From contig NC_008340.1 in assembly GCF_000014785.1 (NCBI RefSeq), positions 2,730,001 to 2,762,000 on the forward strand: a stretch of 32,000 nucleotides of DNA. The letters are read 5' to 3'. Made by a program: the position numbers and the translations under genes. Below the pieces are notes generated by a model. The model was not told where the DNA came from, did no database searches, and was given only the letters and a program-made list of their open reading frames with translations. Of this stretch, positions 4,302 through 31,510 are shown one piece after another. How positions within the stretch are numbered: the stretch's first letter is position 1; each line of letters begins with the position of its first letter. This stretch comes from Alkalilimnicola ehrlichii MLHE-1. Its GTDB lineage: Bacteria; Pseudomonadota; Gammaproteobacteria; Nitrococcales; Halorhodospiraceae.

Positions 4302-4317
4302 TCACCCATTTGGGTGA
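4302..4317. promoter_or_regulatory. Perfect palindrome TCACCCA-TT-TGGGTGA, a candidate operator
   Basis: 7+7 bp inverted repeat with a 2-nt spacer, too tight to form a hairpin loop. It lies about 30 nt after the LuxR stop and about 93 nt upstream of the lipoprotein ATG. A second inverted repeat, CACGGCA-N10-TGCCGTG, lies at 4354-4377. Confidence 0.3.
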
Positions 4318-4409
4318 TGCCGCCGGGTCGCCGGGCCCGCTATAAGCCCGGGACACGGCAACAGCGGGTGTGCCGTGGACCATCCGTGGTTGAATCGAGG
4401 GGAGAGACC

Positions 4410-6473
4410 ATGAAACGGCTATTACTGATCGCGCTCACCCTGTTGCTGAGCCTGGCCCTGGCCGGTTGCTTCAGCAGCAGCAGTAGCAGCAATGGAACGG
4501 ACACGGACAACGGGGCCCCGGAGAACGGGGAGATCGACAACGGCGTACCGGGTGAGGATGAGAACGGCGACGCGGACATTGACGAGATTTCCGGCGAGGC
4601 GCTGATCGGTGCCGACTGGGCCACCGTCGGCGCCACCGCACGGATCGATGACGACAGGCTGGTGGCGGCCCAGACCAATGGCTTGGTCCCGGTGGCAGGC
4701 GGCACCGTCCAGCTCATCGAACTGAACGACAATGGCGAACCGGTGAGAACGGAGGGTGACGCTGGTGAGGTGGTGGTGCTCGCCGAAGCCTCCATCAGTG
4801 AAACCGGCAACTACTCCATCGCCCTGCCGGATGATGTGGCACTGGGGGCCAATATGGCCCTGCGTTTCCAGGTCCCGGAAAGCGATCAGTACCTCCGGGC
4901 CGCAACCACCGGCGCAGAGGTGGAGATCAGCCCGGTCTCGGAGTACGTGCTGCGCCGCCTGGCGGAGCAGCGGGTGCGCCTCAGCCGCCTGGATACCGGC
5001 ACCCTGCTCAACCTCACTGGCCAGGTACGGGATAACGCCACTGATTTCGGGGCCACACCGGAAAGTTGGGCGGAGACCGTGATCGAAGAGGTGGATCAGG
5101 ACTTCTCGGAGGCAAAGGATGCCCGCGACATCGACATGATCGCCGGGGCGTGGCACCTGTTGGACTTCAACCTGTACGTCGGCGCCTGGAACGACGCCCC
5201 CCAGGAGGAGTTGGCCGCCGGGACCGGGTTGTTGACCCTGGATCTGAGCCCCTCCGCGGAGGACCCCCGCGACGGGGACGTGACCATAATCGATGACCTG
5301 TTCGTTTTCGGCTCACGCCGTGGTGAGTTTGTCCACACCGAAATCGCGGTGGACAGTGGACTGAACGAGGCACTGCCCGGGATCGCGCAATTGGGCGACA
5401 CCGACCCCCGGCTCTTTGTCTCGGCACCCGCCGAGGTCCATTGTGATGATGACAACGGCGGGTTGATCTTCGTGTGGGGTCCGCAGGCGCTGACATTCAA
5501 TCCGGCCGGCGTGCTCGGTGAGGACACCAGTCTGTTTGCCGGCAGCCTGGTGCGCACCGAGCGCATCTTCACCTTCGACACCCAGGGCAACTGTGTGGTG
5601 GACGCGGACAACCGCACCGCCACCCGGGCAGAAATGCAGGTCAACGTCCTGGCCCGGGGCGACGGCCGCGCGCTGTCCGCCGCGGAGAACGTGACCTACG
5701 GAATCGTCGGGCTTCAGGTGGAACTCCCGGAAAACGACGAGCAGCCACTGCTGCTGGGCCGCATTGGCACCTTTGCCTTCGGTGACCGGATCAACGGCGA
5801 GATAGGCGGCGATGCCCGGCTGGACGAATGGGAGGTGGAGCTGTTCGAGGGGCGGATGGAGGAAGACGCCCTGGGTTCCGAGTTCGACATCACCCTGCAC
5901 GACACCGGTAGCGGGCCGCTGCGCCTGGCCTTCGAGGGCGATGACCCGCAGGACGGCCTGGACGCCACCGTGTCGGAAGATGGCGGTCTGTTCTCCATGG
6001 TCACCCTGGTCGGCGACGAGGACGAGGCCAGCCCGGGCCTGTTCCTGGGCGTCCCCTTAGGCAGCCCGAGCGACGACCCGATACCCACGGGCCGTTACGC
6101 CTGGCAGGGAGTGGATGCGGAGTTCAACGAGGGCGGTAACGTCCTGGTGGCCCGGTACCGGGGGACGATAGAAATCGCCTCCAATGGCAACGGCGGCACC
6201 CTGACCCTCGTCGAGCTGAGCGAGCGAGCAGCAGAGGTGCAGGGCGGTGCGCTGCAGTGGCGCCAGGAGGAGGAGGCCGACATCGCCTTTGATATCAGCC
6301 CGGTGGGCACCAATGGCCGGATCGTGGTGGACGCGGGAGACACCGTGATTGAGGGCTACGCCTCAGCGGATGGCGACACCGTCGTGCTGCTCCGGCGGTA
6401 TGCCGGCCCTTCCCCGGAGGGTGAGCCCGAGGCCGGCTTCGGCCTGTGGATCGGCACCCGCATCGACGACTGA
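4410..6473 (+). CDS. Large, strongly acidic secreted lipoprotein of unknown function
   Basis: The ATG at 4410 is preceded by GAGGGGAGAG. The N-terminus is MKRLLLIALTLLLSLALAGC (signal peptide plus lipobox), followed by a Ser-run linker (FSSSSSSNG) and a D/E/G/N-rich stretch. The segment VAGGTVQLIELNDNGEP...ETGNYSIALPDD resembles a carboxypeptidase-regulatory-like beta-sandwich (inference). The 687-aa ORF is uninterrupted. Confidence 0.8.
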   Translation: MKRLLLIALTLLLSLALAGCFSSSSSSNGTDTDNGAPENGEIDNGVPGEDENGDADIDEISGEALIGADWATVGATARIDDDRLVAAQTNGLVPVAGGTVQLIELNDNGEPVRTEGDAGEVVVLAEASISETGNYSIALPDDVALGANMALRFQVPESDQYLRAATTGAEVEISPVSEYVLRRLAEQRVRLSRLDTGTLLNLTGQVRDNATDFGATPESWAETVIEEVDQDFSEAKDARDIDMIAGAWHLLDFNLYVGAWNDAPQEELAAGTGLLTLDLSPSAEDPRDGDVTIIDDLFVFGSRRGEFVHTEIAVDSGLNEALPGIAQLGDTDPRLFVSAPAEVHCDDDNGGLIFVWGPQALTFNPAGVLGEDTSLFAGSLVRTERIFTFDTQGNCVVDADNRTATRAEMQVNVLARGDGRALSAAENVTYGIVGLQVELPENDEQPLLLGRIGTFAFGDRINGEIGGDARLDEWEVELFEGRMEEDALGSEFDITLHDTGSGPLRLAFEGDDPQDGLDATVSEDGGLFSMVTLVGDEDEASPGLFLGVPLGSPSDDPIPTGRYAWQGVDAEFNEGGNVLVARYRGTIEIASNGNGGTLTLVELSERAAEVQGGALQWRQEEEADIAFDISPVGTNGRIVVDAGDTVIEGYASADGDTVVLLRRYAGPSPEGEPEAGFGLWIGTRIDD

Positions 6474-19511: not shown

Positions 19512-19890
19512 CACCGTCATCGCGAGCCCCCCTCCCCGCTGCGCGGGCCCGAATCAACGAGGAACGGGGCACCCCCGTCATTGCCAGGGCCGAAGGCTTT
19601 CCCCCCGTCATCGCGAGGGCCGAAGGCCCGTGGCGATCCAGGGCTGTAGACTGCCGCGTCGGCTTCGCCTCCTCGCAGTGACGGTGGGGGGGTAGCCCTT
19701 CCCGCCGTGACGGTGGGGGCGCCACCCCGTCATCGCGAGGAGCGCAGCGACGTGGCGATCCACACGCCGGCATGGACTGCCGCGCCCCTTCGGGGCTCGC
19801 AGTGACGGTGGGGCGGGTCGCCGCTTGCCGTGACGGTGGGGCGGGCCGCCGGCCGCCGTGACGGTGGGGCGGGTCGCCGTGACGGAGTGG
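19512..19890. repeat. REP/BIME-like repeat cluster 5
   Basis: GTCATCGCGAGCCCCCCTCCCCGCTGCGCGGGCCCGAATCAACGAGGAACGGGGCACCCCCGTCATTGCC..., the full composite GTCATCGCGAGGGCCGAAGGCCCGTGGCGATCCAGGGCTGTAGACTGCCGCGTCGGCTTCGCCTCCTCGCAGTGACGGTGGGGG, and then 3-4 short CCGTGACGGTGGGGCGGG reiterations. Confidence 0.9.
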
Positions 19891-21027: not shown

Positions 21028-21660
21028 TCAGTCCATGGCCAGGCGGTCGATCACGGGCAGACACTCCGGGCCGTGGAAATGCAGGCCCAGGTCCTTGAGG
21101 CGACCGCTGGCCAGCCCGTAGATCCAACCATGCACCGACAGCGGCTGCCCCCGCTGCCAGGCCTGTTGTACCACCGTGCTGCGGCAGACATTGCGCACGC
21201 TCTGCTGGACGTTCAATTCGCACAGCAGATCCACCTGCCGCTCCTCGGGCAGATCGCGAAACTGCCCTTCATTCAGATGATAGACGTCCTCGATGTGGCG
21301 CAACCAGTTGTTGACGAAGCCCACGTACTGGTTGCTCAGCGCCGCCTTCACCCCGCCACAGCCGTAGTGGCCACAGACGATGATGTGCCGCACCTTGAGG
21401 ACATCCACGGCGTACTGCAGCACACTCAGGCAATTCACATCGGCGTGGGTGACCACATTGGCGATGTTCCGGTGGACGAACAGTTCGCCCGGCGGCATGT
21501 CGACGATCTCGCTGGCCGGCACCCGGCTGTCCGAGCAGCCAATCCAGAGGTACTCGGGCTTCTGTTCCCTGGCGAGCCGCTGGAAGAACGCCGGATCCTC
21601 CCGCTGCTTGCGCTCGGCCCAGGCCTGGTTGTTGGCCAATAGGTCTTTCAATTCGGGCAT
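21028..21660 (-). CDS. can: Beta-class carbonic anhydrase (Can-type)
   Basis: MPELKDLLANNQAWAE....EDPAFFQRLAREQKPEYLWIGCSDSRVPASEIV...PGELFVHRNIANVV.H.D.NCLSVLQYAVDVLKV.HIIVCGHYGCGGV is near-collinear with my recollection of E. coli Can. The Zn ligands C-D-R / H-x2-C are present. AGGAGG lies upstream of the ATG. Confidence 0.95.
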   Translation of the reverse strand: MPELKDLLANNQAWAERKQREDPAFFQRLAREQKPEYLWIGCSDSRVPASEIVDMPPGELFVHRNIANVVTHADVNCLSVLQYAVDVLKVRHIIVCGHYGCGGVKAALSNQYVGFVNNWLRHIEDVYHLNEGQFRDLPEERQVDLLCELNVQQSVRNVCRSTVVQQAWQRGQPLSVHGWIYGLASGRLKDLGLHFHGPECLPVIDRLAMD

Positions 21661-21760
21661 GGGGCCTCCTGGTCGGTGAATGGGACGGGACTATCGGCCA
21701 AGATACCGCAACCGGCCGGCTTGTGAAGCACCGGCCACCTCCCTCGGCTGGGCCGCCCCC

Positions 21761-22525
21761 TCAGGCCAGGTGATGGCCGGGCAGGCCTTCCAAGTGCTGG
21801 CGCACCTCATCCCAGAGGGCCTCGTAGGCACGGGCCGCCGGGCTGGTGGGGGCGAAGTCGCAGACCGGCCGTTGGTGCAGGCCCATCTGCTCAACCTGGG
21901 TGCTGTAGGGGATGGCCGGGCCAAGCAGCCGCTTCATGTTCAATGGCGGCTGCTCCACCAGTTGCCGGTGCATTCCCCTCCGGCGGTCCACCATTGACCA
22001 GAAGGGCACCAGCTTGCGCCGCGGAAGCTCGTGCTGTTTGAAAAACGCGCGCAGCTGTGCCCAGGCCCGCAGCGACAACGGTGTCGGCACCAGCGGCACC
22101 AGCACCCGGCTGGCGGCACGGAAGACGTTCTCCGACAGGCGGGAGAAGCTGGGCGGGCAGTCGAGCACCGCAAGGGCGTAGCGCTCCGAGAGCGGTTCCA
22201 GAAGCTGGTGGAGCCGGTCGTCCCCGCCCTTCTCGTCCAGGTGGAGATCCAGGTGGCGGTAGCGCTCGTCCGCTGGCAGCAGCTGCAGGTTGTCCCAGGC
22301 GGTGTCGCACAGCTCGCGGCCGATGGGGCGCTTGCCGCTGAGCAGCTTGCGGGGCTTGCCTTGGAGCCCCTCCTCCACCCCCAGGTACCAGCTCGCCGCT
22401 CCCTGCGCGTCCAGGTCCCAGAACACCGTGGGCAGCCCGTCGCGGGCGGCGAGCCAGGCCAGGTTGACGGCGGCGGCGGTCTTGCCGACGCCCCCCTTCA
22501 GGTTGTAAAAGGCGATAACTTCCAA
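21761..22525 (-). CDS. Orphan ParA/MinD-family P-loop ATPase
   Basis: Deviant Walker A with the signature lysine: IAFYNLKGGVGKTAAAVNLA. Walker A' FWDLDAQGAAS. Walker B ALAVLDCPPS. A TTG start at 22525 is inferred from GGAGGA 6 nt upstream (ggaggatctTTGgaagttatc). The longer track ORF (to 22621) overlaps the CHAD gene and adds a Gly/Arg/Pro-rich N-terminus. Confidence 0.85.
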   Translation of the reverse strand: MEVIAFYNLKGGVGKTAAAVNLAWLAARDGLPTVFWDLDAQGAASWYLGVEEGLQGKPRKLLSGKRPIGRELCDTAWDNLQLLPADERYRHLDLHLDEKGGDDRLHQLLEPLSERYALAVLDCPPSFSRLSENVFRAASRVLVPLVPTPLSLRAWAQLRAFFKQHELPRRKLVPFWSMVDRRRGMHRQLVEQPPLNMKRLLGPAIPYSTQVEQMGLHQRPVCDFAPTSPAARAYEALWDEVRQHLEGLPGHHLA

Positions 22526-22572
22526 AGATCCTCCAGGGCACACACCCCCGCAAGGGGGCGCTACCGAATGGT

Positions 22573-23496
22573 TCAGACGGTGCCGCCCTCGTGGCCCAGC
22601 TCCTCGCGCCAGACCTCCCACCAGGCCCGGAGACGGCGCGACAGGGCGCCCGGGCGGTCGGCGTACAGGCGCCGGCCCAGGCGCAGGGCGGGCAGGCGCA
22701 GCTCGTCGTGGCGTTGGGCGATCATGCCGCGGATCAGGCGCCGGTGGACCTCGCCGACATGACCGGGTTCGTCCACCAGGAGCTGGTCCAATACCTGTAG
22801 ATCGTGATCGTCACCGAGCAGATCGGAGAGGGTCTTCAGTTCCGATTGCAGGGTCTTCATCAGCGGTGACCAGAGCAGACGCAGCACCTGCACATGGTAC
22901 CAGTAGTCCTTCACCCGCTTGCGCCATTCGTGCCAGGCCTCCGGGTCGTCGCTGAACCGGCTGGCCTGGAATGCCTGACCGCCGGCCTGATAACAGCGCT
23001 GGAAACCGGCCAGAAAGGCATCCGCCCCCTCGGCCTTCGATGGCCAGTCGGCGATGCGTTCGCGGGCGCCGTGCAGCTCGTCGACCAGGTTCGCCATCTG
23101 CCCGGCCAGGTCCCCCTCCTCCGCGGCCAGTCGGTCGCGGCGAACCTCAAGGGCCCGCTGACAGGCCCCCAGCGCCTCCTGTTGGGTGGGCAGCCGGAAC
23201 CGCTCGCTCAGGGCATCCACCGTTTCCAGCACTGCCTGGGCGTCGCGATAGCCGGACAGGGCGCGGGCCTGGTCCCGATACCAGGCGTTCTCCGCCTGCG
23301 CCCGCTTGCGCCCCAGCGTCGGGCGGAATAGCCGGAGCAGGGCGCGCAGCTCCTTGAAGCGCTTGCGCGCCTGGTGCACCGCCTCGTGGGGATCGCCACC
23401 GCCCTGCAACACCTCAATGGCCGCATCCACCCGGCCCCGGGCCAGCTTGCGGATGTCCGCAGCGAGCGCCCTGCGTCCTTCCAGCCGGAATGCCAT
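22573..23496 (-). CDS. CHAD-domain protein
   Basis: 307 aa and all-helical. VHQARKRFKELRALLRLFRP...YRDAQV and later WHEWRKRVKDYWYHVQVL...LGDDHDLQVL are the conserved His/Arg-rich CHAD repeats. Confidence 0.85.
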   Translation of the reverse strand: MAFRLEGRRALAADIRKLARGRVDAAIEVLQGGGDPHEAVHQARKRFKELRALLRLFRPTLGRKRAQAENAWYRDQARALSGYRDAQAVLETVDALSERFRLPTQQEALGACQRALEVRRDRLAAEEGDLAGQMANLVDELHGARERIADWPSKAEGADAFLAGFQRCYQAGGQAFQASRFSDDPEAWHEWRKRVKDYWYHVQVLRLLWSPLMKTLQSELKTLSDLLGDDHDLQVLDQLLVDEPGHVGEVHRRLIRGMIAQRHDELRLPALRLGRRLYADRPGALSRRLRAWWEVWREELGHEGGTV

Positions 23497-23530
23497 GTCC
23501 CTCTCCAGTGTCTTCCTGACCTCAGGGTAC

Positions 23531-23562
23531 CTTATATAATAATGGAATTAATCATAGTCCAA
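23531..23562 (-). promoter_or_regulatory. Candidate sigma70 promoter for the CHAD/ParA-like genes in a local AT-rich patch
   Basis: On the minus strand: TTGGAC (23562-23557), 18-nt spacer, TATATA(A) (23538-23533). It lies about 35 nt upstream of the CHAD ATG, which has a GGAGAGGG Shine-Dalgarno. This is the only AT-rich stretch in that intergenic region. Confidence 0.35.
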
Positions 23563-23611
23563 CACGGGGTTTTGCTGCAGAACGGCAACCGGGCCGGCCG
23601 CCACGGAGCGG

Positions 23612-25567
23612 TCAACCCAACGCGGCCTCGGCCGCCTCCAACGCCTCCAGGGCCTCCATCCAGTCCGCCTCCAAGGCCTCCTGGCGGGCCTTGAGCACCC
23701 CCTGCCGGTGCAGCAGTTCGGTCAGGCGGTCCTTGCCCGCTGCCTCGTACAAAGCGGGCTCACCCAGGGCCCTCTCCACGTCAGCCAGCTCCCCGCTCAG
23801 TTCATCCAGCGCCTTCTCCAACTGCTCGGCCTTGCGACGCAACGGGCGAAGCTGCTCGCGTTGCCGCGCCTGGGCGCGGCGCTGGGCCTTGCGCGATTCA
23901 GCCGTGTGCGCCGGGGAGGACCCGTGCCGCGGTTCGTCGCCATCAGGCGCGGGCCCGGTCCCGGCAGAGGCGACGCCGTTGACGGCCTTCTGCGCCTCGC
24001 GCCATTCGAGGAACCACTGGCGGTAGGTCTCCAGGTCGCCGTCCAGCGGGCGGACGCGGCCCTCGGCCACCAGGTAGTACTCATCGCAGGTGGTGGTGAG
24101 CAGGTGACGGTCGTGGGAGACGAGGACCACGGCGCCTTCGTATTCCTGCAAGGCGACGGTCAGGGCGTGGCGCATCTCCAGGTCCAGGTGGTTGGTGGGC
24201 TCGTCCAACAGCAACAGGTTGGGCCGCTGCCAGACCAGCAGTGCCAGCACCAGGCGGGCCTTTTCACCACCGCTGAAGGGGGCCACGGCACGGTCCGCAT
24301 CGTCGCCGGAGAAGCCGAAACCGCCGATAAAGTTGCGCAGGGTCTGTTCCTGCGCCTTCGGGGCCAGGCGCTGCAGGTGCAGCAGCGGCGAGGCCTGGCC
24401 ATCCAGTTGCTCCAGTTGATGCTGGGCGAAGTAGCCCACGGCCAGCCCCTGACTGCCGGTGATCTGGCCCGCCTGGGGTTTCAACTCGCCGGCCAGGGCG
24501 CGGATGAAGGTGGACTTGCCGGCCCCGTTCGGTCCCAGCAGGCCCATCCGCTCCCCCGGGCGCAGCGAGAGCTGAATCCGGCGCAGGACCGGGTCACCGC
24601 CATAGCCCAAATCCACCCGGTCGAGCACCAGCAGCGGGTTGGCGGCCCGGGGCGGGTCGGGGAAGTGGAACTCGAAGGGCGCGTCCACGTGCGCCGGGGC
24701 GATGCGCTCCATCCGCTCCAGCGCCTTGATACGGCTCTGCGCCGCCTTGGCCTTGTTGGCCTGGGCGCGGAAGCGGTCGATGAATTTGTGCAGATGGGCA
24801 ATCTCCGCCTGCTGCTTCTCGTACTGGGCCTGCTGTTGCGCCAGGCGCTCGGCGCGGCGCTTTTCGAAGTCGCTGTAGCCGCCCGTATAGTGCACCAGCC
24901 GCCGGCCATCGAAGTGGACGATGCCCTGGACCACGGTGTCGAGGAAGTCGCGGTCGTGGGAGATGAGCAGCAGCGCCCCCGGGTACTGGCAGAGCCACTG
25001 CTCCAGCCAGAGCACAGCCTCCAGGTCCAGGTGGTTGGTGGGCTCGTCCAACAGCAGCAGGTCGGAGGGCTGGATGAGCGCGCGGGCCAGGTTGAGGCGC
25101 ATGCGCCAGCCGCCGGAGAAATCGCTCACCGGCCGGGCCCGCCCGGCGGCGTCAAAACCCAGCCCCTCCAGCAGGGTCTCCGCCCGGGAGGCGGCGGTGT
25201 AGCCGTCGATGGCGTCCAGGCGGGCGTGCAGTTGCCCCATGGCCTCGCCGTCGCCCGCCGCTTCCGCCTCGGCCAGCCGCGCCTGGAGTGCTCGCAGCTC
25301 CAGGTGGCCATCCAGCACGTAGTCCAGGGCGCTGCTGGCCAGCGCCGGGGTCTCCTGGACCACATGGGCGATACGCCAATCACGGGGGATGCCCACCTCG
25401 CCGGCGTCCGGGCCGATCTCGCCCTGCAGCAGGGCGAACAGGGTGCTCTTGCCGCAGCCGTTGGGACCGACCAGGCCGAGGCGCTGCCCCGGGTAGACGG
25501 TGAGACTGGCCTGGTGGAGGAGTTCCTCGGGGCCGCGGGAAAGGGTGATGTCCTTGAGGGTGATCAT
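23612..25567 (-). CDS. yheS: ABC-F family ATPase YheS (tandem ABC domains, coiled-coil C-terminal tail)
   Basis: The internal ATG at 25567 gives MITLKDITLSRG. GPNGCGKSTLF, VSDFSGGWRMRLNLARAL, LLLLDEPTNHLD, the linker RIKALERMERIAPAHVD, the second domain GPNGAGKSTFI, FSGGEKARLVLALLVWQRPNLLLLDEPTNHLD, and VSHDRHLL. It is collinear with my recollection of E. coli YheS throughout. Confidence 0.9.
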   Translation of the reverse strand: MITLKDITLSRGPEELLHQASLTVYPGQRLGLVGPNGCGKSTLFALLQGEIGPDAGEVGIPRDWRIAHVVQETPALASSALDYVLDGHLELRALQARLAEAEAAGDGEAMGQLHARLDAIDGYTAASRAETLLEGLGFDAAGRARPVSDFSGGWRMRLNLARALIQPSDLLLLDEPTNHLDLEAVLWLEQWLCQYPGALLLISHDRDFLDTVVQGIVHFDGRRLVHYTGGYSDFEKRRAERLAQQQAQYEKQQAEIAHLHKFIDRFRAQANKAKAAQSRIKALERMERIAPAHVDAPFEFHFPDPPRAANPLLVLDRVDLGYGGDPVLRRIQLSLRPGERMGLLGPNGAGKSTFIRALAGELKPQAGQITGSQGLAVGYFAQHQLEQLDGQASPLLHLQRLAPKAQEQTLRNFIGGFGFSGDDADRAVAPFSGGEKARLVLALLVWQRPNLLLLDEPTNHLDLEMRHALTVALQEYEGAVVLVSHDRHLLTTTCDEYYLVAEGRVRPLDGDLETYRQWFLEWREAQKAVNGVASAGTGPAPDGDEPRHGSSPAHTAESRKAQRRAQARQREQLRPLRRKAEQLEKALDELSGELADVERALGEPALYEAAGKDRLTELLHRQGVLKARQEALEADWMEALEALEAAEAALG

Positions 25568-25912
25568 GGCTGGGATTCTACCAGCCGATGGTGCCAAGGC
25601 GTCAGGGCGATGCCCCAGGCGGATGCGCACGCAAACCCCGTCGCGGCGACCCTGTGCCACAGCCCTTGGGGTTCACTCACGCACCAATATACGCCACCAA
25701 ACGCAGCGAACACCAAACCATTGCTGCCCCGTGCAACCCCTATATTTGGAATGCACACAATACGTCGCCACCCCCCGGAACAGGGCTGCGCAATACATTG
25801 ATTTTATGGAGGTGGCATTATCCTGGAGCAGAATGATCAGGAATAACCAGGTCCTACTAGCTCGGTCTTTTTTACCATTTCGTAACAGAAAAGACATCGT
25901 TTCTAACCACCC

Positions 25913-26043: not shown

Positions 26044-27153
26044 ATGAGTAGCGATAGCACAGTGATTCCAAGAGATACCAATAGCGGCTGGGCCGCGGAA
26101 CGGGCTCGCCGCGGCGGCAGGCAGCGCCACTCCAAGTGGTGGCTGCTCGCCGTCATCGTCTCAGTGACGCTAAGCCTTCCGCTCAGCGGCTACCTGGCGC
26201 CGGCGGCCGCCAGCCAAGGCGCGGATCTGGCGGGGTTCTATCCTGAGAGCCAGATCAGCTACAGCTGGTCGTCGCTACGCGAAGGGCCCCTCACGATCTT
26301 CGCCCTACTGGCCATCGCCGGGTCGATACTCGTCTTTCTCGCGTTCCATCTGTTCGCCGGCAAGGTAAGGATTGACGGCGGCCGGTCCGGCACCACCGTG
26401 CCGAGGTGGAGCAGGTTCGAGCGCCTTCTGCACTGGCTGCTCGCCGGCTCGTTCATCGTGCTGGCGATCACCGGCCTATCGCTGTTCTTCGGTCGGTACG
26501 CGCTGATGCCCTTGCTGGGGGAGAGGGGTTTCTCCACCTACGCCTCGGGGGCGATCTGGATTCATGAAACCATCGGGCTGGTATTCGTGGCCCTCCTGGT
26601 CGCCGCCATCCTGCAGTGGATAAAGGGCAACCTTTTCCGGAGCTACGACTGGCAATGGTTCAAGCAGGGCGGCGGCTATATCGGCGATCGCAACACCCAC
26701 CCGCCGGCAGGGAAGGCGAACGGCGGCGAAAAGCTCTACTTCTGGCTCGGCATCGTTAGCATGGGGTCGGTCACAGCGATCACCGGTCTCGTACTCTACT
26801 TCACCACTTGGACCGGATCGGAGGGCTTGGTCGCCTGGTCGTTGATTTTCCATGTGCTCGGCGCCGCAGGATTCATCGCCCTGGCGATCGGCCATGTCTA
26901 CCTGGGTGCCATCGGCAATGAAGGGACGCTGGAGGGCATGGTGAGCGGCCGGGTGGACTGCAACTGGGCGAAACAGCACCACAACATCTGGTACGAAGAG
27001 ATCCTCCAGGACGGCGTGCAGCCGGAGCCCGCGAGCACGTCTGCGGCAGACGCCTCCGTGCCGAGCGCAAAGAGTTCGAAGTCCACGGCAACCGACGCCG
27101 CGTCATTGACGATTCGGACCGACGATGCGCCGGCGCGTCGCCCTTTGTCTTGA
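26044..27153 (+). CDS. FdnI-type (formate-dehydrogenase-gamma-like, PF01292-type) di-haem cytochrome b membrane subunit with an N-terminal extension
   Basis: The core aligns with my recollection of E. coli FdnI. RFERLLHWLLAGSFIVLAITGL, IWIHETIGLVF, GKANGGEKLYFWLGIVSMGSVTAITGLVLYF, and IFHVLGAAGFIALAIGHVYLGAIGNEGTLEGMVSGRVDCNWAKQHHNIWYEEI. All four haem-ligand His positions are present. There is also a predicted signal peptide (WWLLAVIVSVTLSLPLSGYLAPAAA/SQ), one additional TM helix, and a Ser/Ala/Thr-rich tail of about 50 aa. Confidence 0.85.
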   Translation: MSSDSTVIPRDTNSGWAAERARRGGRQRHSKWWLLAVIVSVTLSLPLSGYLAPAAASQGADLAGFYPESQISYSWSSLREGPLTIFALLAIAGSILVFLAFHLFAGKVRIDGGRSGTTVPRWSRFERLLHWLLAGSFIVLAITGLSLFFGRYALMPLLGERGFSTYASGAIWIHETIGLVFVALLVAAILQWIKGNLFRSYDWQWFKQGGGYIGDRNTHPPAGKANGGEKLYFWLGIVSMGSVTAITGLVLYFTTWTGSEGLVAWSLIFHVLGAAGFIALAIGHVYLGAIGNEGTLEGMVSGRVDCNWAKQHHNIWYEEILQDGVQPEPASTSAADASVPSAKSSKSTATDAASLTIRTDDAPARRPLS

Positions 27154-27203
27154 GCCGAGCGCCCCGGGAAGTCCCCTGTGGCCGTAGGCTATTGAATGAG
27201 TTT

Positions 27204-27412
27204 GTTGCGAGCCCCCTCCCCGCTGCGCGGGCCCGAATCAACGAGGAACGGGGTACCCCTGTCATCGCGAGGGCCGAAGGCCCGTGGCGATCCAGGGCGG
27301 TAGACTGCCGCGTCGGCTTCGCCTCCTCGCAGTGACGGTGGGGGTGGGGCCCCGCTCGCAGTGACGGTGGGGGCAACCTTCCGCTTCCGGCACAGTCCAG
27401 TTCTTCAAGAGG
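27204..27412. repeat. REP/BIME-like repeat cluster 6, inside the molybdoenzyme operon
   Basis: GCGAGCCCCCTCCCCGCTGCGCGGGCCCGAATCAACGAGGAACGGGGTACCCCTGTCATCGCGAGGGCCGAAGGCCCGTGGCGATCCAGGGCGGTAGACTGCCGCGTCGGCTTCGCCTCCTCGCAGTGACGGTGGGGG..., followed by the CCGCTTCCGGCACAGTCCAGTTCTTCAAGAGG module, which ends at the Shine-Dalgarno of the next gene. Confidence 0.9.
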
Positions 27413-27423
27413 AGAGAGCACGA

Positions 27424-29904
27424 ATGAATGTACTGCAGAATAAGCTCAACAGGAGACGATTCCTGCAGGCGTCCGGGGCCGCCGGTGCGGCGGGTGTGGC
27501 AGGCCTGAATGCGATCCCAGGTATATCGACGCTGGAGGCCAGCCCTGGGACCCGGGCGCGGGCCACGTCGGATACCGTCGTCACCAAGAGCGTCTGCCAG
27601 CAGTGCTCCACTCGCTGCGGGCTCGACGTCTATACGACCAACGGCCGGGTGCATGCCATCTACGGCAATCCAGACGCTCCGTTATCCAACGGCAAGCTCT
27701 GCCCCAAAGGCCACCTGGGCCCATACATCCTTTACGATGCCGACCGCTTCAAGGGGCCGATGAAGCGCACCAATCCCAAGAAGGGCCGCAACGAAGACCC
27801 GGGCTTCGTGCCGATCTCCTGGGACGAGGCCCTGGATACGGTCGCTGCCCGCTTGACGGCGCTGCGCGAGCGGAACGAGTCGCATCGCTTCGTTGTGGCG
27901 TACGGCCGCGGCTGGGGCCCCGCCGACGCCGGCCTGTTCGGCACCTGGGGCCGGTTGTACGGCTCCTCGAGCATCGGCATCGGCCATTCGAGCATCTGCG
28001 CCGATGGCTCCAAGAAGGTCAAGCGCGCCATGGACGGCAATGACTCATACAACTCCTACGACTACGAGAATTGCAATTGCCTGCTGATCTTCGGCGCCGG
28101 CTTCCTCGAGTCTTTCCGGCCTTACAATGCCAACATGCAGATGTGGGGCAGGATGCGCAGCAAGGGCACCCGCATCACCATGGTCGATGTGCGCAACTCT
28201 GTGACCGCCGCCGCTGCCGATCGCAAGCTGATCGTGTCTCCCGGCACTGACGGTGCGATCGCTTTGGCCATCGCCCACGTCATCCTCACCGAAGGCCTGT
28301 GGGACAGGCCCTTCGTTGGCGACTTCACCCGGTCCCGACTGCGATTCGAGACCGGCAAGCCGATCGATCCCGACACCTTCTCGGAAAACTGGGTGAAGGA
28401 CCTTCCGGCTTGGTGGAACACAACGCTGAAGGACGCCACTCCTGCCTGGGCCGAGGGCATCACCGGCGTGCCGGCGGAGAAGATCGTCGCCACGGCGAAG
28501 GAGTTCGGCAGCACCCGGCCGGCCATAGCGGTGTTCGAGCGCGGTCCCACGGCGCACACCAACGGCGCCTACAACGGCATGGCCATTCACGCCCTGAACG
28601 CGCTGGTCGGCTCAATGTTCGCCAAGGGTGGCCTGAGCTACCAGATGGGCTCGTCCGCCGGCAGCCTGCCGATCAACCCCGATGACTACATGGACGACTA
28701 CGCCCGTGAGATGGAGGGCAAATACCCGCGCATCGATATGGCGCGGACCGACGCCTGGCCGATGACCTCCAACATGATCCAGGACATCGCCAAGAACCAT
28801 CTGACCGGCTCACCGTACAAGATGGACACGATCATGTTCTATACGGTGGGTCCGATCTATTCCGGCCCCGACTGCACGGTGTGGGAAGAGGCACTCCAGG
28901 ACGTGTTCGTGATCGACACCTCGCCCTCGCCGCAGGAGAGTGCGCAGTTCGCCGACCTGATCCTGCCCGATCACACCTACCTGGAACGACTCGAAGTCGC
29001 CAACACTTACCCGTTCCAGGGCTATCCGATGTCGATGATCCGCGAGCCGGCGGTAAAACCGCTTTACGACACGATGCAGTTCGGCAACATCATGATCGAA
29101 CTTGGCAAGCGGATGCCCGGCCCGATGGCCGATTACTACCAGCAGGTGGGCAGTGTCGAGAACGTGGTGGCCGCATTCGCCGCGGGCTTTGAAAACGACC
29201 CCGGCGATAACGGCGTTAATGACCTGGCCAGCTTCAAAGAGAAGGGTGTCTGGTACAAGACCCCCTATTTGTGGCGCCAAATCGACGGCGAGTTCTACGA
29301 ATGGGACGGCCACCGCTACAGCATTCGGATGAGCGAGGACGATGTTAAGGCGAAACTGCTGAAGACCCCATCCGGGAAGTTCGAGTTCCAGCCCGCTTGG
29401 TTCACCAACGAGAAACACGCCGCGCATATCCAGAAACATCTCGGTATTCCGCGCGATATGATCGGCTTCCCCCATTACGTCGAACCGCAATACCAGGGCG
29501 GCGGCGACCTGCACCTGATCAGCCCGAAGCTACCGCTCTCCGCTGAGGGGCGCTCCGCCAACCTGCCGCATACCCACGCGGTATGGCAACCCACGCAGGG
29601 TGGCACCGACACGGTGTACATGGAGATTCACCCACAGGCCGCCGCCGCCCGCGGCATCAAGGACCGCGACCGGGTCCGGATAAGCTCCTCGGTGGGCGCC
29701 ATCGAGTGCTTCGCCAGCGTCTCTGGCGGGGTGCCGAAGGACACGGTAGTGCTGCCGCTGGCCCACGGCCACTGGGGCTCCGGCCGTTGGGCCCAGAACA
29801 AGGGGGTTTCCGGCAGTGTCAACGAAGTCATTCCCAACGTCGTCGAGCCGGTTTCCGGGCTCGTGGCCTTCAGCGCCGCCAAGGTCTTCGTTGAGAAGGT
29901 TTGA
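27424..29904 (+). CDS. Tat-exported molybdopterin (Mo/W-bisPGD) oxidoreductase catalytic subunit, Psr/Phs/Arr-like clade with Cys metal ligand. Substrate unknown.
   Basis: The ATG at 27424 follows AGGAGA. Twin-arginine signal NRRRFLQASGAAGAAGVAG. FS0 motif C-x2-C-x3-C-x27-C (CQQCSTRCGLDV...NGKLCPKGH). RTNPKKGRNEDPGFVPISWDEAL. Probable Mo-ligand region IGHSSICADGSKK. SPGTDGAIALAIAHVIL. 826 aa with no in-frame stop, so there is no selenocysteine. Confidence 0.9.
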   Translation: MNVLQNKLNRRRFLQASGAAGAAGVAGLNAIPGISTLEASPGTRARATSDTVVTKSVCQQCSTRCGLDVYTTNGRVHAIYGNPDAPLSNGKLCPKGHLGPYILYDADRFKGPMKRTNPKKGRNEDPGFVPISWDEALDTVAARLTALRERNESHRFVVAYGRGWGPADAGLFGTWGRLYGSSSIGIGHSSICADGSKKVKRAMDGNDSYNSYDYENCNCLLIFGAGFLESFRPYNANMQMWGRMRSKGTRITMVDVRNSVTAAAADRKLIVSPGTDGAIALAIAHVILTEGLWDRPFVGDFTRSRLRFETGKPIDPDTFSENWVKDLPAWWNTTLKDATPAWAEGITGVPAEKIVATAKEFGSTRPAIAVFERGPTAHTNGAYNGMAIHALNALVGSMFAKGGLSYQMGSSAGSLPINPDDYMDDYAREMEGKYPRIDMARTDAWPMTSNMIQDIAKNHLTGSPYKMDTIMFYTVGPIYSGPDCTVWEEALQDVFVIDTSPSPQESAQFADLILPDHTYLERLEVANTYPFQGYPMSMIREPAVKPLYDTMQFGNIMIELGKRMPGPMADYYQQVGSVENVVAAFAAGFENDPGDNGVNDLASFKEKGVWYKTPYLWRQIDGEFYEWDGHRYSIRMSEDDVKAKLLKTPSGKFEFQPAWFTNEKHAAHIQKHLGIPRDMIGFPHYVEPQYQGGGDLHLISPKLPLSAEGRSANLPHTHAVWQPTQGGTDTVYMEIHPQAAAARGIKDRDRVRISSSVGAIECFASVSGGVPKDTVVLPLAHGHWGSGRWAQNKGVSGSVNEVIPNVVEPVSGLVAFSAAKVFVEKV

Positions 29905-29928
29905 TCGAATTAGCAGGAGTAAATTGCG

Positions 29929-30675
29929 ATGACTAAGTGGGGCATGGTTATAGACTTGGAGAAATGCACCGGCTGCCAGGCCTGCACGATCGCCTGTGGC
30001 ATGGAGAACAACCTTCTGCCGGGCGAGCACTGGCAGGACGTTCTCTATTACTCGGAAGGCCAACTACCGGACCACGAATTGAAGTGGCTGCCGAGGCCCT
30101 GCATGCAATGTGAAGATGCCACCTGCGTCACGGTCTGCCCGACGGGGGCAACCTATAAGGATGCGGAGGCGGGCGGCGTGGTTTTCATCGACTGGGACCG
30201 CTGCATCGGCTGCAAATATTGCATCGTGGCCTGCCCCTATGGTGTGCGCTTCTCCACGGCCGAGCTCAAAACGCAGTCGCCGGACATGCGCGAGGTCTTT
30301 CCCAGCGGCGACGGCCACACCTGGAATCCGCCCTGGAGGGCGCCGGATTCCCGGGACAACCCCAAACGCGGGATCGGCATCCCGCCGAAGAATGTGGTGA
30401 GCAAGTGCACCTTTTGTCATCACCGCACCTCCACCGCCCCCGCCGACACGGCGGATCTCGATCCGAGCAACCCGGACCTGCGCGAGCATACGCCGGCCTG
30501 TGTGGTGACCTGCGCCCCCGGGGCCCGTTACTTTGGCGACCTCAACAACCCGAACAGCCAGGTGTCCAAGCTCATCGCAGAGCACAACGGGCAACCGGTG
30601 CTGAGTCACCTGAAGAACAAGCCGCAGGTGTATTACCTCGGCCGCAAGCGCGCTTCGCCGTCCCGGAGCAGTTGA
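29929..30675 (+). CDS. Four-cluster [4Fe-4S] ferredoxin electron-transfer subunit (PsrB/DmsB/FdnH-like), no TM anchor
   Basis: AGGAG Shine-Dalgarno. Four Cys groups: CTGCQACTIAC, CMQCEDATCVTVCP, CIGCKYCIVACP, and CTFCHHR...ACVVTCAP. There is an insertion of about 40 aa before group IV. The C-terminus (GRKRASPSRSS) is hydrophilic. Confidence 0.9.
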   Translation: MTKWGMVIDLEKCTGCQACTIACGMENNLLPGEHWQDVLYYSEGQLPDHELKWLPRPCMQCEDATCVTVCPTGATYKDAEAGGVVFIDWDRCIGCKYCIVACPYGVRFSTAELKTQSPDMREVFPSGDGHTWNPPWRAPDSRDNPKRGIGIPPKNVVSKCTFCHHRTSTAPADTADLDPSNPDLREHTPACVVTCAPGARYFGDLNNPNSQVSKLIAEHNGQPVLSHLKNKPQVYYLGRKRASPSRSS

Positions 30676-30676
30676 G

Positions 30677-31510
30677 GTGGGGGTGGATGATACGTCGGGC
30701 CTGTCGTTGCAGGGCGAACTGCTCGCCTGCCTTGGGCAGGCGATGCAACCTCCGCGCTCGGATGCGTTCTTCAACGCGTTGCGGGATGGGTTGGTGGACG
30801 ATATCGCCGACCTATGCGGGGCACTCGGGGCGGAGTCCGTAGCCGCCGATCTGCCACCGTTGCGTTGCGCGTTGGGCGAGGTGGAGGATCGGGAGTCGTT
30901 GCTATTGGCCTACAGCGTGTTGTTTCTCGCGCCCCCGCCCAAGGTGCGCCTCAACCTGGTCCGATTGATGGATGGGGCTTCCAGTGGTGCCGGTCTCGGC
31001 TACCTGGACGAAATGCTGGCCAGGCACCAGCTCAACCTCCGCTCCGAACACCGGGAACTGCCGGATCACCTCACGGTGGTTCTGGAGTTGGCCGCCTGCC
31101 TGATCAGCCGGGGTGAGCAAGGCAATGACCAGGCAGAACGAGACGCCAAGGCCTTGCTGCAACAAATGGTGGCACCGGCAGCCCGACACCTTGCCGAAAC
31201 GGCGGCCGACGTGGAGCAGGCACATGGCCTGCCCAAGGTCTACTCACGGCTGCTGGCGCTGATCGGCACGACCGGCCAGGACCCGGATGGCTGTCTGCTT
31301 CCCGGCACCCGTTCGGTTGCCGGGGAGGCCACCGGTGCGAGCAAATCCGCGCCGGACACCGGCCCAGCCATGGCCGCCTGCGCGCGCTGCGGGACACCTT
31401 TCGTGAGCCTGCGCGACCAGGCGGTGCTGATCGCGCATTTACAGGAGGCGGGAGCGCCGGCCGATCATCTGCACGTCTGTCCCGACTGCCGCACGGGGCC
31501 CGGCGGCTGA
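30677..31510 (+). CDS. TorD/DmsD-family redox-enzyme maturation chaperone with a C-terminal CxxC...CxxC zinc-ribbon-like extension
   Basis: A GTG start 1 nt after the upstream stop (another GTG lies at 30683). LLLAYSVLFLAPPP...YLDEMLARHQLNL....ELPDHLTVVLELAACL is the TorD-family core. The tail is CARCGTPFVSLRDQAVLIAHLQEAGAPADHLHVCPDCR. Confidence 0.75.
   Translation: MGVDDTSGLSLQGELLACLGQAMQPPRSDAFFNALRDGLVDDIADLCGALGAESVAADLPPLRCALGEVEDRESLLLAYSVLFLAPPPKVRLNLVRLMDGASSGAGLGYLDEMLARHQLNLRSEHRELPDHLTVVLELAACLISRGEQGNDQAERDAKALLQQMVAPAARHLAETAADVEQAHGLPKVYSRLLALIGTTGQDPDGCLLPGTRSVAGEATGASKSAPDTGPAMAACARCGTPFVSLRDQAVLIAHLQEAGAPADHLHVCPDCRTGPGG

Follow-up and report, generated by a model that had tools for sequence, protein, structure and literature searches.

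Organisation of the CHAD-ParA locus

A stretch of 32,000 nucleotides (nt) of the Alkalilimnicola ehrlichii MLHE-1 genome (contig NC_008340.1, positions 2,730,001 to 2,762,000) was analysed; it is called the window hereafter, and all coordinates follow its own numbering. On its minus strand the window encodes a stand-alone CHAD protein followed by an orphan ATPase of the ParA/MinD family, in the gene order ABC-F ATPase, CHAD, ParA-like ATPase, beta-carbonic anhydrase and two Slp lipoproteins. The CHAD protein (307 amino acids (aa), 23496..22573, Pfam CHAD) is of the 'phosin' type and is proposed here as an adaptor binding the polyphosphate (polyP) granule. The ATPase (254 aa) is encoded from a TTG start at 22525 to 21761 and was detected by the Pfam families AAA_31 (2e-24) and CbiA. 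Its open reading frame (ORF) corresponds to an annotated A. ehrlichii MLHE-1 protein, with 100% identity across the full length.

Both genes are co-directional and, as described in the initial annotation, separated by 47 nt, the spacer being exactly 22526-22572. The spacer harbours the ribosome-binding site GGAGGA (22530-22535), and this site and the TTG start context of the ATPase are kept in the two closest relatives, the loci L163 and L164. An 8-bp GC hairpin, GCGCCCCC-UUGC-GGGGGUGU, was also found in the spacer (22538-22560, minus strand), and the spacers of relatives possess GC hairpins of different sequence. The hairpin could tune the relative expression of both genes, or mean nothing in a genome of 68% GC. 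As a regulatory element it was rejected, since its stability is not above that of shuffled sequence (z -1.3) and its sequence is not conserved.

The CHAD gene is preceded by an AT-rich patch (23506..23565, minus strand), which had been described as promoter-like. The AT richness was evident, as the patch is the lowest-GC 60-nt stretch in the entire 32 kb (38% versus about 68%). The promoter part was not confirmed, since a scan with the sigma-70 consensus called no minus-strand promoter in the patch; regarding it as a possible promoter region of the pair is a guess.

Pfam scans of the window genes did not detect any parB, plasmid, flagellar, chemotaxis-operon, division, ppk or ppx gene, nor min or bcs genes near the ATPase. 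Similarly, the search for parS-like sites in the window gave no matches allowing up to three mismatches. The orphan character of the ATPase, noted at the outset from the missing partition, plasmid, flagellar, chemotaxis and division context, agrees with both searches.

Placement of the ATPase in a distinct ParA clade

The ATPase possesses the complete deviant Walker A, A' and B motifs ascribed to it in the initial annotation, each of which was found in the sequence (coordinates on the minus strand). The deviant Walker A motif KGGVGKT (residues 10-16, 22478..22498), with the signature lysine K10, is invariant in 83 family members. The Walker A' region TVFWDLDAQG (22400..22429) includes W36, a hallmark of the family at a position occupied by V or L in Soj. 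According to the family alignment, the Walker B motif corresponds to LAVLDCPP (22151..22174). D37 and D39 of the A' motif and D122 of the B motif are invariant across the family.

The scores of the ATPase reached no NCBIfam family cut-off, with 71.3 of 180 bits for ParA_partition, 49.8 of 157.85 for BcsQ, 44 of 348 for RepA, 25.9 of 212.9 for minD_bact, and 19 of 725 for SopA. Pfam MipZ gave 21.1 bits, with no single stretch passing alone. Orthologs of the ATPase are numerous and well conserved (41-61% identity), and their profile matched best the structures of chromosomal ParA/Soj proteins (8RAY, E 2.7e-34; Thermus thermophilus Soj, E 1e-26). McdA was matched with E 1e-15 and in its N-terminal half only, and MinD and FleN with about 1e-12. 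The AF2 (AlphaFold2) model of the ATPase, with a predicted local distance difference test (pLDDT) value of 90.9, has a plain Soj-type fold and no additional domain. Template modelling (TM) scores of the model were 0.83-0.87 to Soj/ParA, at 26-31% identity, and 0.76-0.78 to McdA, while FleN structures were only distant matches in the profile and fold searches. In the same model the C-terminus is a disordered tail (...LEGLPGHHLA) beyond helix 229-244, and a MinD-type amphipathic membrane-targeting helix was not found there.

In a neighbour-joining tree, built plainly with two Soj/ParA outgroups and carrying no support values, the 83 family sequences group in one clade, which a long branch separates from Soj/ParA. 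The family is also characterised by residues that Soj lacks, namely W36 (mostly), R90, D93, P147, L150, S151, F175, H186, E212, M214, and W238, and the window ATPase has all of them. The ATPase is a member of a distinct ParA clade, tied to CHAD and PPK1 and closest to Soj. Grouping with a family of known cargo, which would have spoken against the proposed pair, was seen neither in the NCBIfam scores nor in the tree, where the ATPase falls in a clade of its own.

The patch for non-specific DNA binding in Soj consists of R182, R194, R208 and R211 of the T. thermophilus protein (PMC6393308). In the alignment, the window ATPase keeps R182 and has P194, Y207, and Q210 as counterparts of the other three, positions that are also non-basic across the whole ATPase family. 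Around R182 the family possesses an invariant basic DRR(R/K)xLH cluster, present in the window as DRRRGMHR (21965..21988, minus strand; alignment to T. thermophilus Soj), in which H186 is a family-specific invariant residue. This cluster could bind DNA in another way, or polyP, and the other basic residues R181, R183, H186 and R187 could stand in for the lost Soj patch.

Polyphosphate-binding positions of the CHAD protein

The window CHAD protein scored 106.9 bits with Pfam CHAD (2e-30), against a gathering cut-off of 25.6, and its family profile could be aligned with the Chlorobium tepidum CHAD structure containing bound polyP (CtCHAD; 6QV7/6QVA, E 2.4e-9). CHAD is described as a granule-surface binder for which no enzymatic activity is known, and mutation of the CtCHAD residues H253/R256/R260, R296, and R418/Y419 leads to weaker polyP binding (PMC6537752).

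Counterparts of these residues were found on the minus strand of the window in two basic motifs and an RD motif. Basic motif 1, HQARKRFK (23353..23376), provides H41, R44 and K48, which align with H253/R256/R260 of CtCHAD, and R84 in the RD motif (23245..23247) aligns with the polyP-binding residue R296. Basic motif 2, HEWRKRVKDYWY (22897..22932), includes H189, R192, K196 and Y200, and aligns with LHELRIDCKKLRY of CtCHAD, which contains R418/Y419; W199 replaces R418 in the window protein and the tyrosine (Y200) is retained. In the alignment of the short-CHAD family (A4), H41, R44, K48 and R84 are invariant, and the positions of basic motif 2 are invariant or almost so. Judged from these alignments, the polyP-binding positions of CtCHAD are conserved in the window CHAD protein.

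Gene neighbourhood of the ATPase clade

To describe the neighbourhood of the ATPase, 80 loci with orthologs at 41-57% identity were compiled with one genome per GTDB species. The loci were picked by ATPase similarity and not by gene context, and were processed by ORF calling, Pfam scan of the directly upstream ORF, and clustering of all flanking ORFs. In 45 of the 80 loci a CHAD gene lies directly upstream on the same strand, forty-four of them encoding a protein of about 500-550 aa and one a short CHAD (L010). Six loci, all of Methylophaga, have PPK1 directly upstream, and one (L034) has a short CHAD directly downstream on the same strand. No polyP-related gene was found within 6 kb in twenty-four loci, and the remaining four were not assessable due to a contig edge.

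The immediate same-strand neighbour of the ATPase gene is thus CHAD or ppk1 in 52 of 80 species-level genomes, belonging to about ten phyla. A lack of conservation outside the A. ehrlichii genome had been named beforehand as refuting the proposed pair; the adjacency was instead found to be conserved. Individual look-ups in Thioalkalivibrio ALJ1 and Mangrovitalea, which have no CHAD neighbour, had first suggested that the adjacency was not conserved, and the larger census reversed that. We estimate the chance of such an adjacency at about 0.1% per neighbour, assuming that one to three genes of this kind are present among about 3,500. The genomes with the linkage comprise Gamma-, Alpha-, and Betaproteobacteria, Desulfobacterota, Actinomycetota, Chloroflexota, Chlorobiaceae, Calditrichaceae, Dadabacteria, and Dormiibacterota, to which Acidithiobacillus can be added on literature evidence.

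Twenty-eight out of the forty-five CHAD-ParA junctions have a 4-nt ATGA/GTGA stop-start overlap, confirmed in sequence for a sample of them; such overlaps are a signature of translational coupling. In the clustering of flanking ORFs, the only families common across lineages were CHAD (41 loci) and PPK1 (10 loci), and the order ppk1-CHAD-parA was found in L008, L025, L031 and L071. When the ORFs of 90 aa or more from 82 loci were clustered all against all, no conserved third gene emerged that could encode an adaptor or a second cargo, and the window itself has no room for a small ORF of less than 90 aa. ParB families were likewise absent from the conserved neighbours in the 80 loci.

The usual long partner of the ATPase

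The usual partner of the ATPase is a TTM-like and CHAD-containing protein of about 520 aa. Its profile matches the C. tepidum CHAD structures 3E0S and 6QV7/6QVA (E 1e-106), and the polyP-binding positions of CtCHAD are invariant in the long-partner alignment. The protein of these structures was crystallised and polyP was seen bound to it (PMC6537752). In a Chlorobaculum genome, ppk1 (728 aa) is followed by a 265-aa ORF, a CHAD gene (522 aa) whose product is 97.8% identical to the crystallised fragment, and, 2 nt further on, the gene of a 247-aa member of the ATPase clade. The Chlorobiaceae ORF of about 265 aa between ppk1 and TTM-CHAD is unannotated and belongs to no Pfam family (L166, 5183-5980), and L071 has a comparable gap, between 3287 and 4347, at the same position. 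The product of this ORF may add another component to the system.

Pfam gave no match on the N-terminal 200 residues or so of the long partner, and Pfam CYTH had none among 60 upstream ORFs and 120 Chlorobiaceae proteins. The same Pfam-invisible N-terminal domain (about residues 1-200) was observed in the long partners of L008, L071, L166 and 41 other loci. The AlphaFold model of the long partner (pLDDT 85.9) includes an N-terminal beta-barrel and matches full-length E. coli YgiF (5A60, E 8e-9), thiamine triphosphatases, and an archaeal triphosphate tunnel metalloenzyme (TTM). Based on this model, the long partner is best described as a degenerate TTM/CYTH-like barrel fused to a CHAD of the long (300-aa) type. 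The EXEXK signature was not seen in the long-partner alignments A3/A5, so that the barrel is probably a non-catalytic TTM/CYTH derivative.

Many long partners end in short tails rich in lysine and arginine (e.g. GKGRRGKRV, AKRRRKGA). These tails recall the ATPase-stimulating peptides of ParA partners.

The short CHAD variant in Gammaproteobacteria

The tree splits the ATPase family into a large multi-phylum group, almost wholly linked to the long partner, and a gammaproteobacterial group with Alcanivorax, Marinobacter, Nevskiaceae, Thioalkalivibrio, Salinicola, Methylophaga, Macondimonas, and A. ehrlichii. Juxtapositions with polyP genes in the latter group comprise ppk1 upstream of the ATPase in Methylophaga, a short CHAD upstream in Macondimonas (L010), and a short CHAD downstream in Thioalkalivibrio ALJT (L034). 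A short CHAD is also paired with the ATPase in the metagenome loci L083 and L095, whose ATPases are outside the tree. The CHAD-ParA pair itself is kept in Alkalispirillum, with a ParA 85% identical to that of the window, and in a relative at 76%, the downstream genes being different; it persists to 76% (ParA) and 64% (CHAD) identity.

The window CHAD has closer relatives than the CHAD proteins of L010 and L034, which points to repeated, independent recruitment of short CHADs to this ATPase, as far as sequence relationships tell. Beyond the Alkalilimnicola group, the nearest short CHADs lack a link to the ATPase. A possible Q-to-R change near residue 22 was observed in the ParA-linked short CHADs, in too few sequences to count. 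It is the ATPase family that carries the linkage, and the window is a minority form in which a stand-alone CHAD takes the place of the long partner. It differs from the usual form of the clade by the CHAD subfamily, the 47-nt spacer, and the missing stop-start overlap.

Proposed function and alternative explanations

The interpretation starts from two identified genes, intact ATPase motifs, conserved polyP-binding residues, and a linkage that is phylum-wide. The ATPase is quite probably tied functionally to polyP. By analogy with known ParA systems, we lean slightly towards CHAD and ATPase forming a ParA-type positioning or partition system with the polyP granule as cargo. A candidate granule-positioning pair had been suggested for this locus from the start, and the conserved adjacency and the separate clade strengthen that suggestion, the spacing function being proposed by analogy. 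In this system the CHAD protein would coat the granule via its conserved basic His/Arg/Lys surface. By means of its deviant Walker A motif, the ATPase would dimerise as an ATP-dependent sandwich, and it would bind a polyanionic matrix, probably the nucleoid. Contact with granule-bound CHAD would stimulate ATP hydrolysis and release the ATPase. The granules would then climb the self-generated ATPase gradient, leading to even spacing and inheritance by both daughters, as in McdAB or ParABS. We infer the physical contact between CHAD and ATPase, the matrix that is bound, and the effect on granule position.

Several observations weigh against granule positioning by this pair. Most ATPases of the gammaproteobacterial group are stand-alone, as in Marinobacter, Alcanivorax, Nevskiaceae, and Thioalkalivibrio ALJ1. 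From the side of the CHAD protein, a survey of 80 metagenome loci of the short-CHAD family, 60 of them assessable, gave the ATPase downstream in two loci, and no convincing motif specific to ParA-linked short CHADs was found. Nucleoid binding through the canonical Soj surface is doubtful on the alignment, since three of the four patch residues are lost. Finally, granule spacing as the function is drawn from gene context and analogy.

The ATPase might also regulate polyP rather than space granules, controlling granule nucleation by PPK1, granule number, or the loading of CHAD or PPK1, in resemblance to the control of target assembly by FlhG, MipZ, and PomZ. Such a role would fit the position of ppk1, which lies directly upstream in the six genomes of Methylophaga and comes first in the ppk1-CHAD-parA clusters, as well as the mostly absent canonical Soj DNA patch and the invariant DRR(R/K)xLH cluster, which could itself bind polyP. 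However, CHAD neighbours far outnumber PPK1 (46 loci versus 6) and the fold is nearest to the nucleoid-binding Soj and McdA types, so that we regard regulation as unlikely. The roles could instead be reversed, with polyP being the matrix for the ATP-bound ATPase and the system organising nucleoid regions or other cargo, or tethering granules to DNA. According to reviews, polyP granules lie embedded within the nucleoid and affect chromatin, and the retention of one of the four Soj patch residues together with the invariant Arg/Lys/His cluster would agree with this arrangement. Nevertheless, it appears improbable, considering that the 80 loci offered no third conserved cargo or adaptor gene and that a passive tether needs no ATPase with an intact catalytic set.

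A comparably low probability is given to an adjacency without meaning in this genome, where the ATPase of the subclade would have another cargo and the CHAD protein would be an independent phosin. Most members of the window subclade have no polyP gene nearby, the ATPase is missing at 58 of the 60 assessable short-CHAD loci, and the junction is a spacer and not an overlap. On the other hand, the pair persists over the identity range given above while the flanks change, its ribosome-binding site and TTG junction are conserved, and the subclade has at least three further, differing juxtapositions, far above the per-neighbour chance estimate. Least credible of all is an McdA-like factor positioning carboxysomes or another carbon-concentrating structure and tied to the beta-carbonic anhydrase, even though that gene (21660..21028, minus strand; Pfam scan) starts 100 nt beyond the ATPase gene on the same strand and McdA structures are recognisable neighbours of the ATPase. 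McdA is matched far less closely than Soj, Pfam scans of the window identified no McdB-like or carboxysome shell gene, carboxysome genes were absent from the 80 loci, and the carbonic anhydrase neighbours the ATPase in no other lineage. Furthermore, a promoter-like site, TTCACA-16-TATCTT (21727..21700, minus strand), lies in the gap between the ATPase and carbonic anhydrase genes (21661-21760). ParA and carbonic anhydrase are separated in Alkalispirillum by an opposite-strand P-II/SbtA bicarbonate-transporter pair (L163, 5795-7038), and the carbonic anhydrase is absent from the locus of the 76% relative. Because of the promoter-like site and the P-II/SbtA insertion, the carbonic anhydrase appears to be part of an inorganic-carbon module and not of the CHAD-ParA pair. 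A link of the pair to the carbonic anhydrase and Slp genes, not evident to the initial annotation either, was rejected, as these downstream genes are not conserved with the pair in other lineages and differ even in the closest relatives.

Extended to the whole clade, granule positioning by CHAD and ATPase would become an ATP-driven machine for the positioning or partition of polyP granules in about ten phyla, with CHAD proteins as cargo adaptors, ppk1 often in the same operon, and the window as a swap of a phosin for TTM-CHAD. We consider this extension evenly balanced between right and wrong. A bolder version would have polyP itself, and not DNA, as the polyanionic matrix of the ATPase.

Comparison with known systems and relevance

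In the literature searched, no ParA/MinD ATPase was assigned to polyP granules, and an earlier mention of the ATPase neighbour is possible. PolyP is not mentioned as a cargo in a 2023 survey of ParA/MinD cargos and in a 2024 review. A 2025 review lists AlgP alone for polyP granules, with its ATP dependence marked as unknown and the Caulobacter proteins as unidentified. A 2026 preprint calls the basis of polyP organisation unclear and describes this organisation as not depending on McdAB in Synechococcus; in the cyanobacterium tested, McdA, its sole ParA-family protein, is not involved in the positioning of polyP granules. Two papers on Acidithiobacillus draw a conserved folD-ppk-parA-(CYTH-)CHAD cluster and label parA as a chromosome/plasmid partition gene, no further. 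What is new here is a CHAD/PPK1-linked ParA clade, unnamed in the literature searched, which would represent a new cargo and partner class within ParA/MinD.

Among the ParA/MinD systems, ParABS includes the best sequence and structure match of the ATPase, ParA/Soj, which shares the deviant Walker A, A' and B motifs and a DNA-binding arginine equivalent to R182 of the window protein. The window ATPase differs from it by the lack of ParB and parS, the low ParA_partition score (71 versus 180 bits), and the loss of three of the four DNA-patch residues. Similar to McdA of McdA/McdB, a structural neighbour, it is a small Soj-like ParA ATPase without parB and parS, whose gene lies beside that of a protein binding a non-DNA, protein- or polymer-based organelle; spacing by a Brownian ratchet would be a further likeness, here only proposed. 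In contrast, the cargo genes of the ATPase clade are CHAD and ppk1 instead of carboxysome genes, the partner consists of a helical domain that binds polyP, alone or joined to a TTM barrel, whereas McdB is disordered or coiled-coil, and the sequence match to McdA is weak and limited to its N-terminal half (E 1e-15).

As in the phosins PptA/PptB of Ralstonia eutropha, CtCHAD, and PptA of S. chartreusis, the His/Arg/Lys polyP positions are conserved in the window protein, itself a stand-alone CHAD, and CtCHAD is an ortholog of the long partners found with the ATPase family. According to reviews, phosins have no function known past polyP binding and granule localisation; a role as ParA adaptor was not proposed for them in the literature searched. 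The long partner shares the two-domain architecture of E. coli YgiF and other TTM(CYTH)-CHAD proteins. It differs from them by a barrel that Pfam CYTH does not detect, the missing EXEXK signature, and the 'long' 300-aa CHAD type, and the window CHAD has no barrel domain altogether. AlgP of P. aeruginosa and PhaM/PhaF address the same problem, namely how storage granules are evenly spaced along the nucleoid and inherited. However, they are single histone-H1-like DNA-binding nucleoid tethers without known energy input, whereas two genes including an ATPase are present here, and no AlgP-like gene is involved in the window system.

The CHAD-ParA pair would represent the first concrete candidate for a machine placing polyP granules in bacterial cells. 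If this is true, the spacing and inheritance of these granules gain a testable candidate, CHAD proteins, which are widespread polyP binders, are assigned a role, and the ParA/MinD family gains a new cargo and adaptor class. It would also be relevant for polyP-accumulating organisms in phosphorus removal and biomining, the latter because the Acidithiobacillus clusters are of the same type.

Other features of the window

Upstream of the CHAD gene, the ABC-F ATPase is encoded at 25660..23612 (minus strand), with a gap of 115 nt. This gene contains direct repeats of 45 and 81 nt, which lie 843 nt apart (24092-24256, 24935-25099) and simply reflect its two homologous ABC cassettes. Beyond the Slp genes, the Pfam scan identified an isochorismatase-family protein, a dodecin, and a STAS protein.

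A four-gene operon on the plus strand (26044-31510) encodes a cytochrome b of the formate-dehydrogenase-gamma type, an 847-aa molybdopterin oxidoreductase, a 4Fe-4S subunit, and a NarJ/TorD-like chaperone. Respiratory arsenate reductase ArrA is the nearest match of the oxidoreductase, though far below the cut-off (436 versus 1600 bits), and given the organism the oxidoreductase may be an ArrA/ArxA-like arsenic enzyme.

A family of GC-rich intergenic repeats was found at 19528-19870, downstream of the second Slp gene, and at 27212-27374, upstream of the molybdopterin oxidoreductase gene. A unit of about 160 nt occurs twice, with 92-94% identity, together with several sub-repeats of 28-38 nt ending in CCGTGACGGTGGGG. 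The family looks like a REP-type (repetitive extragenic palindromic) element. The window also harbours an ORF of 719 aa (4314-6473, plus strand), which has no Pfam or NCBIfam match and a gene-like GC distribution over the codon positions (GC at the third position, GC3, 0.82).

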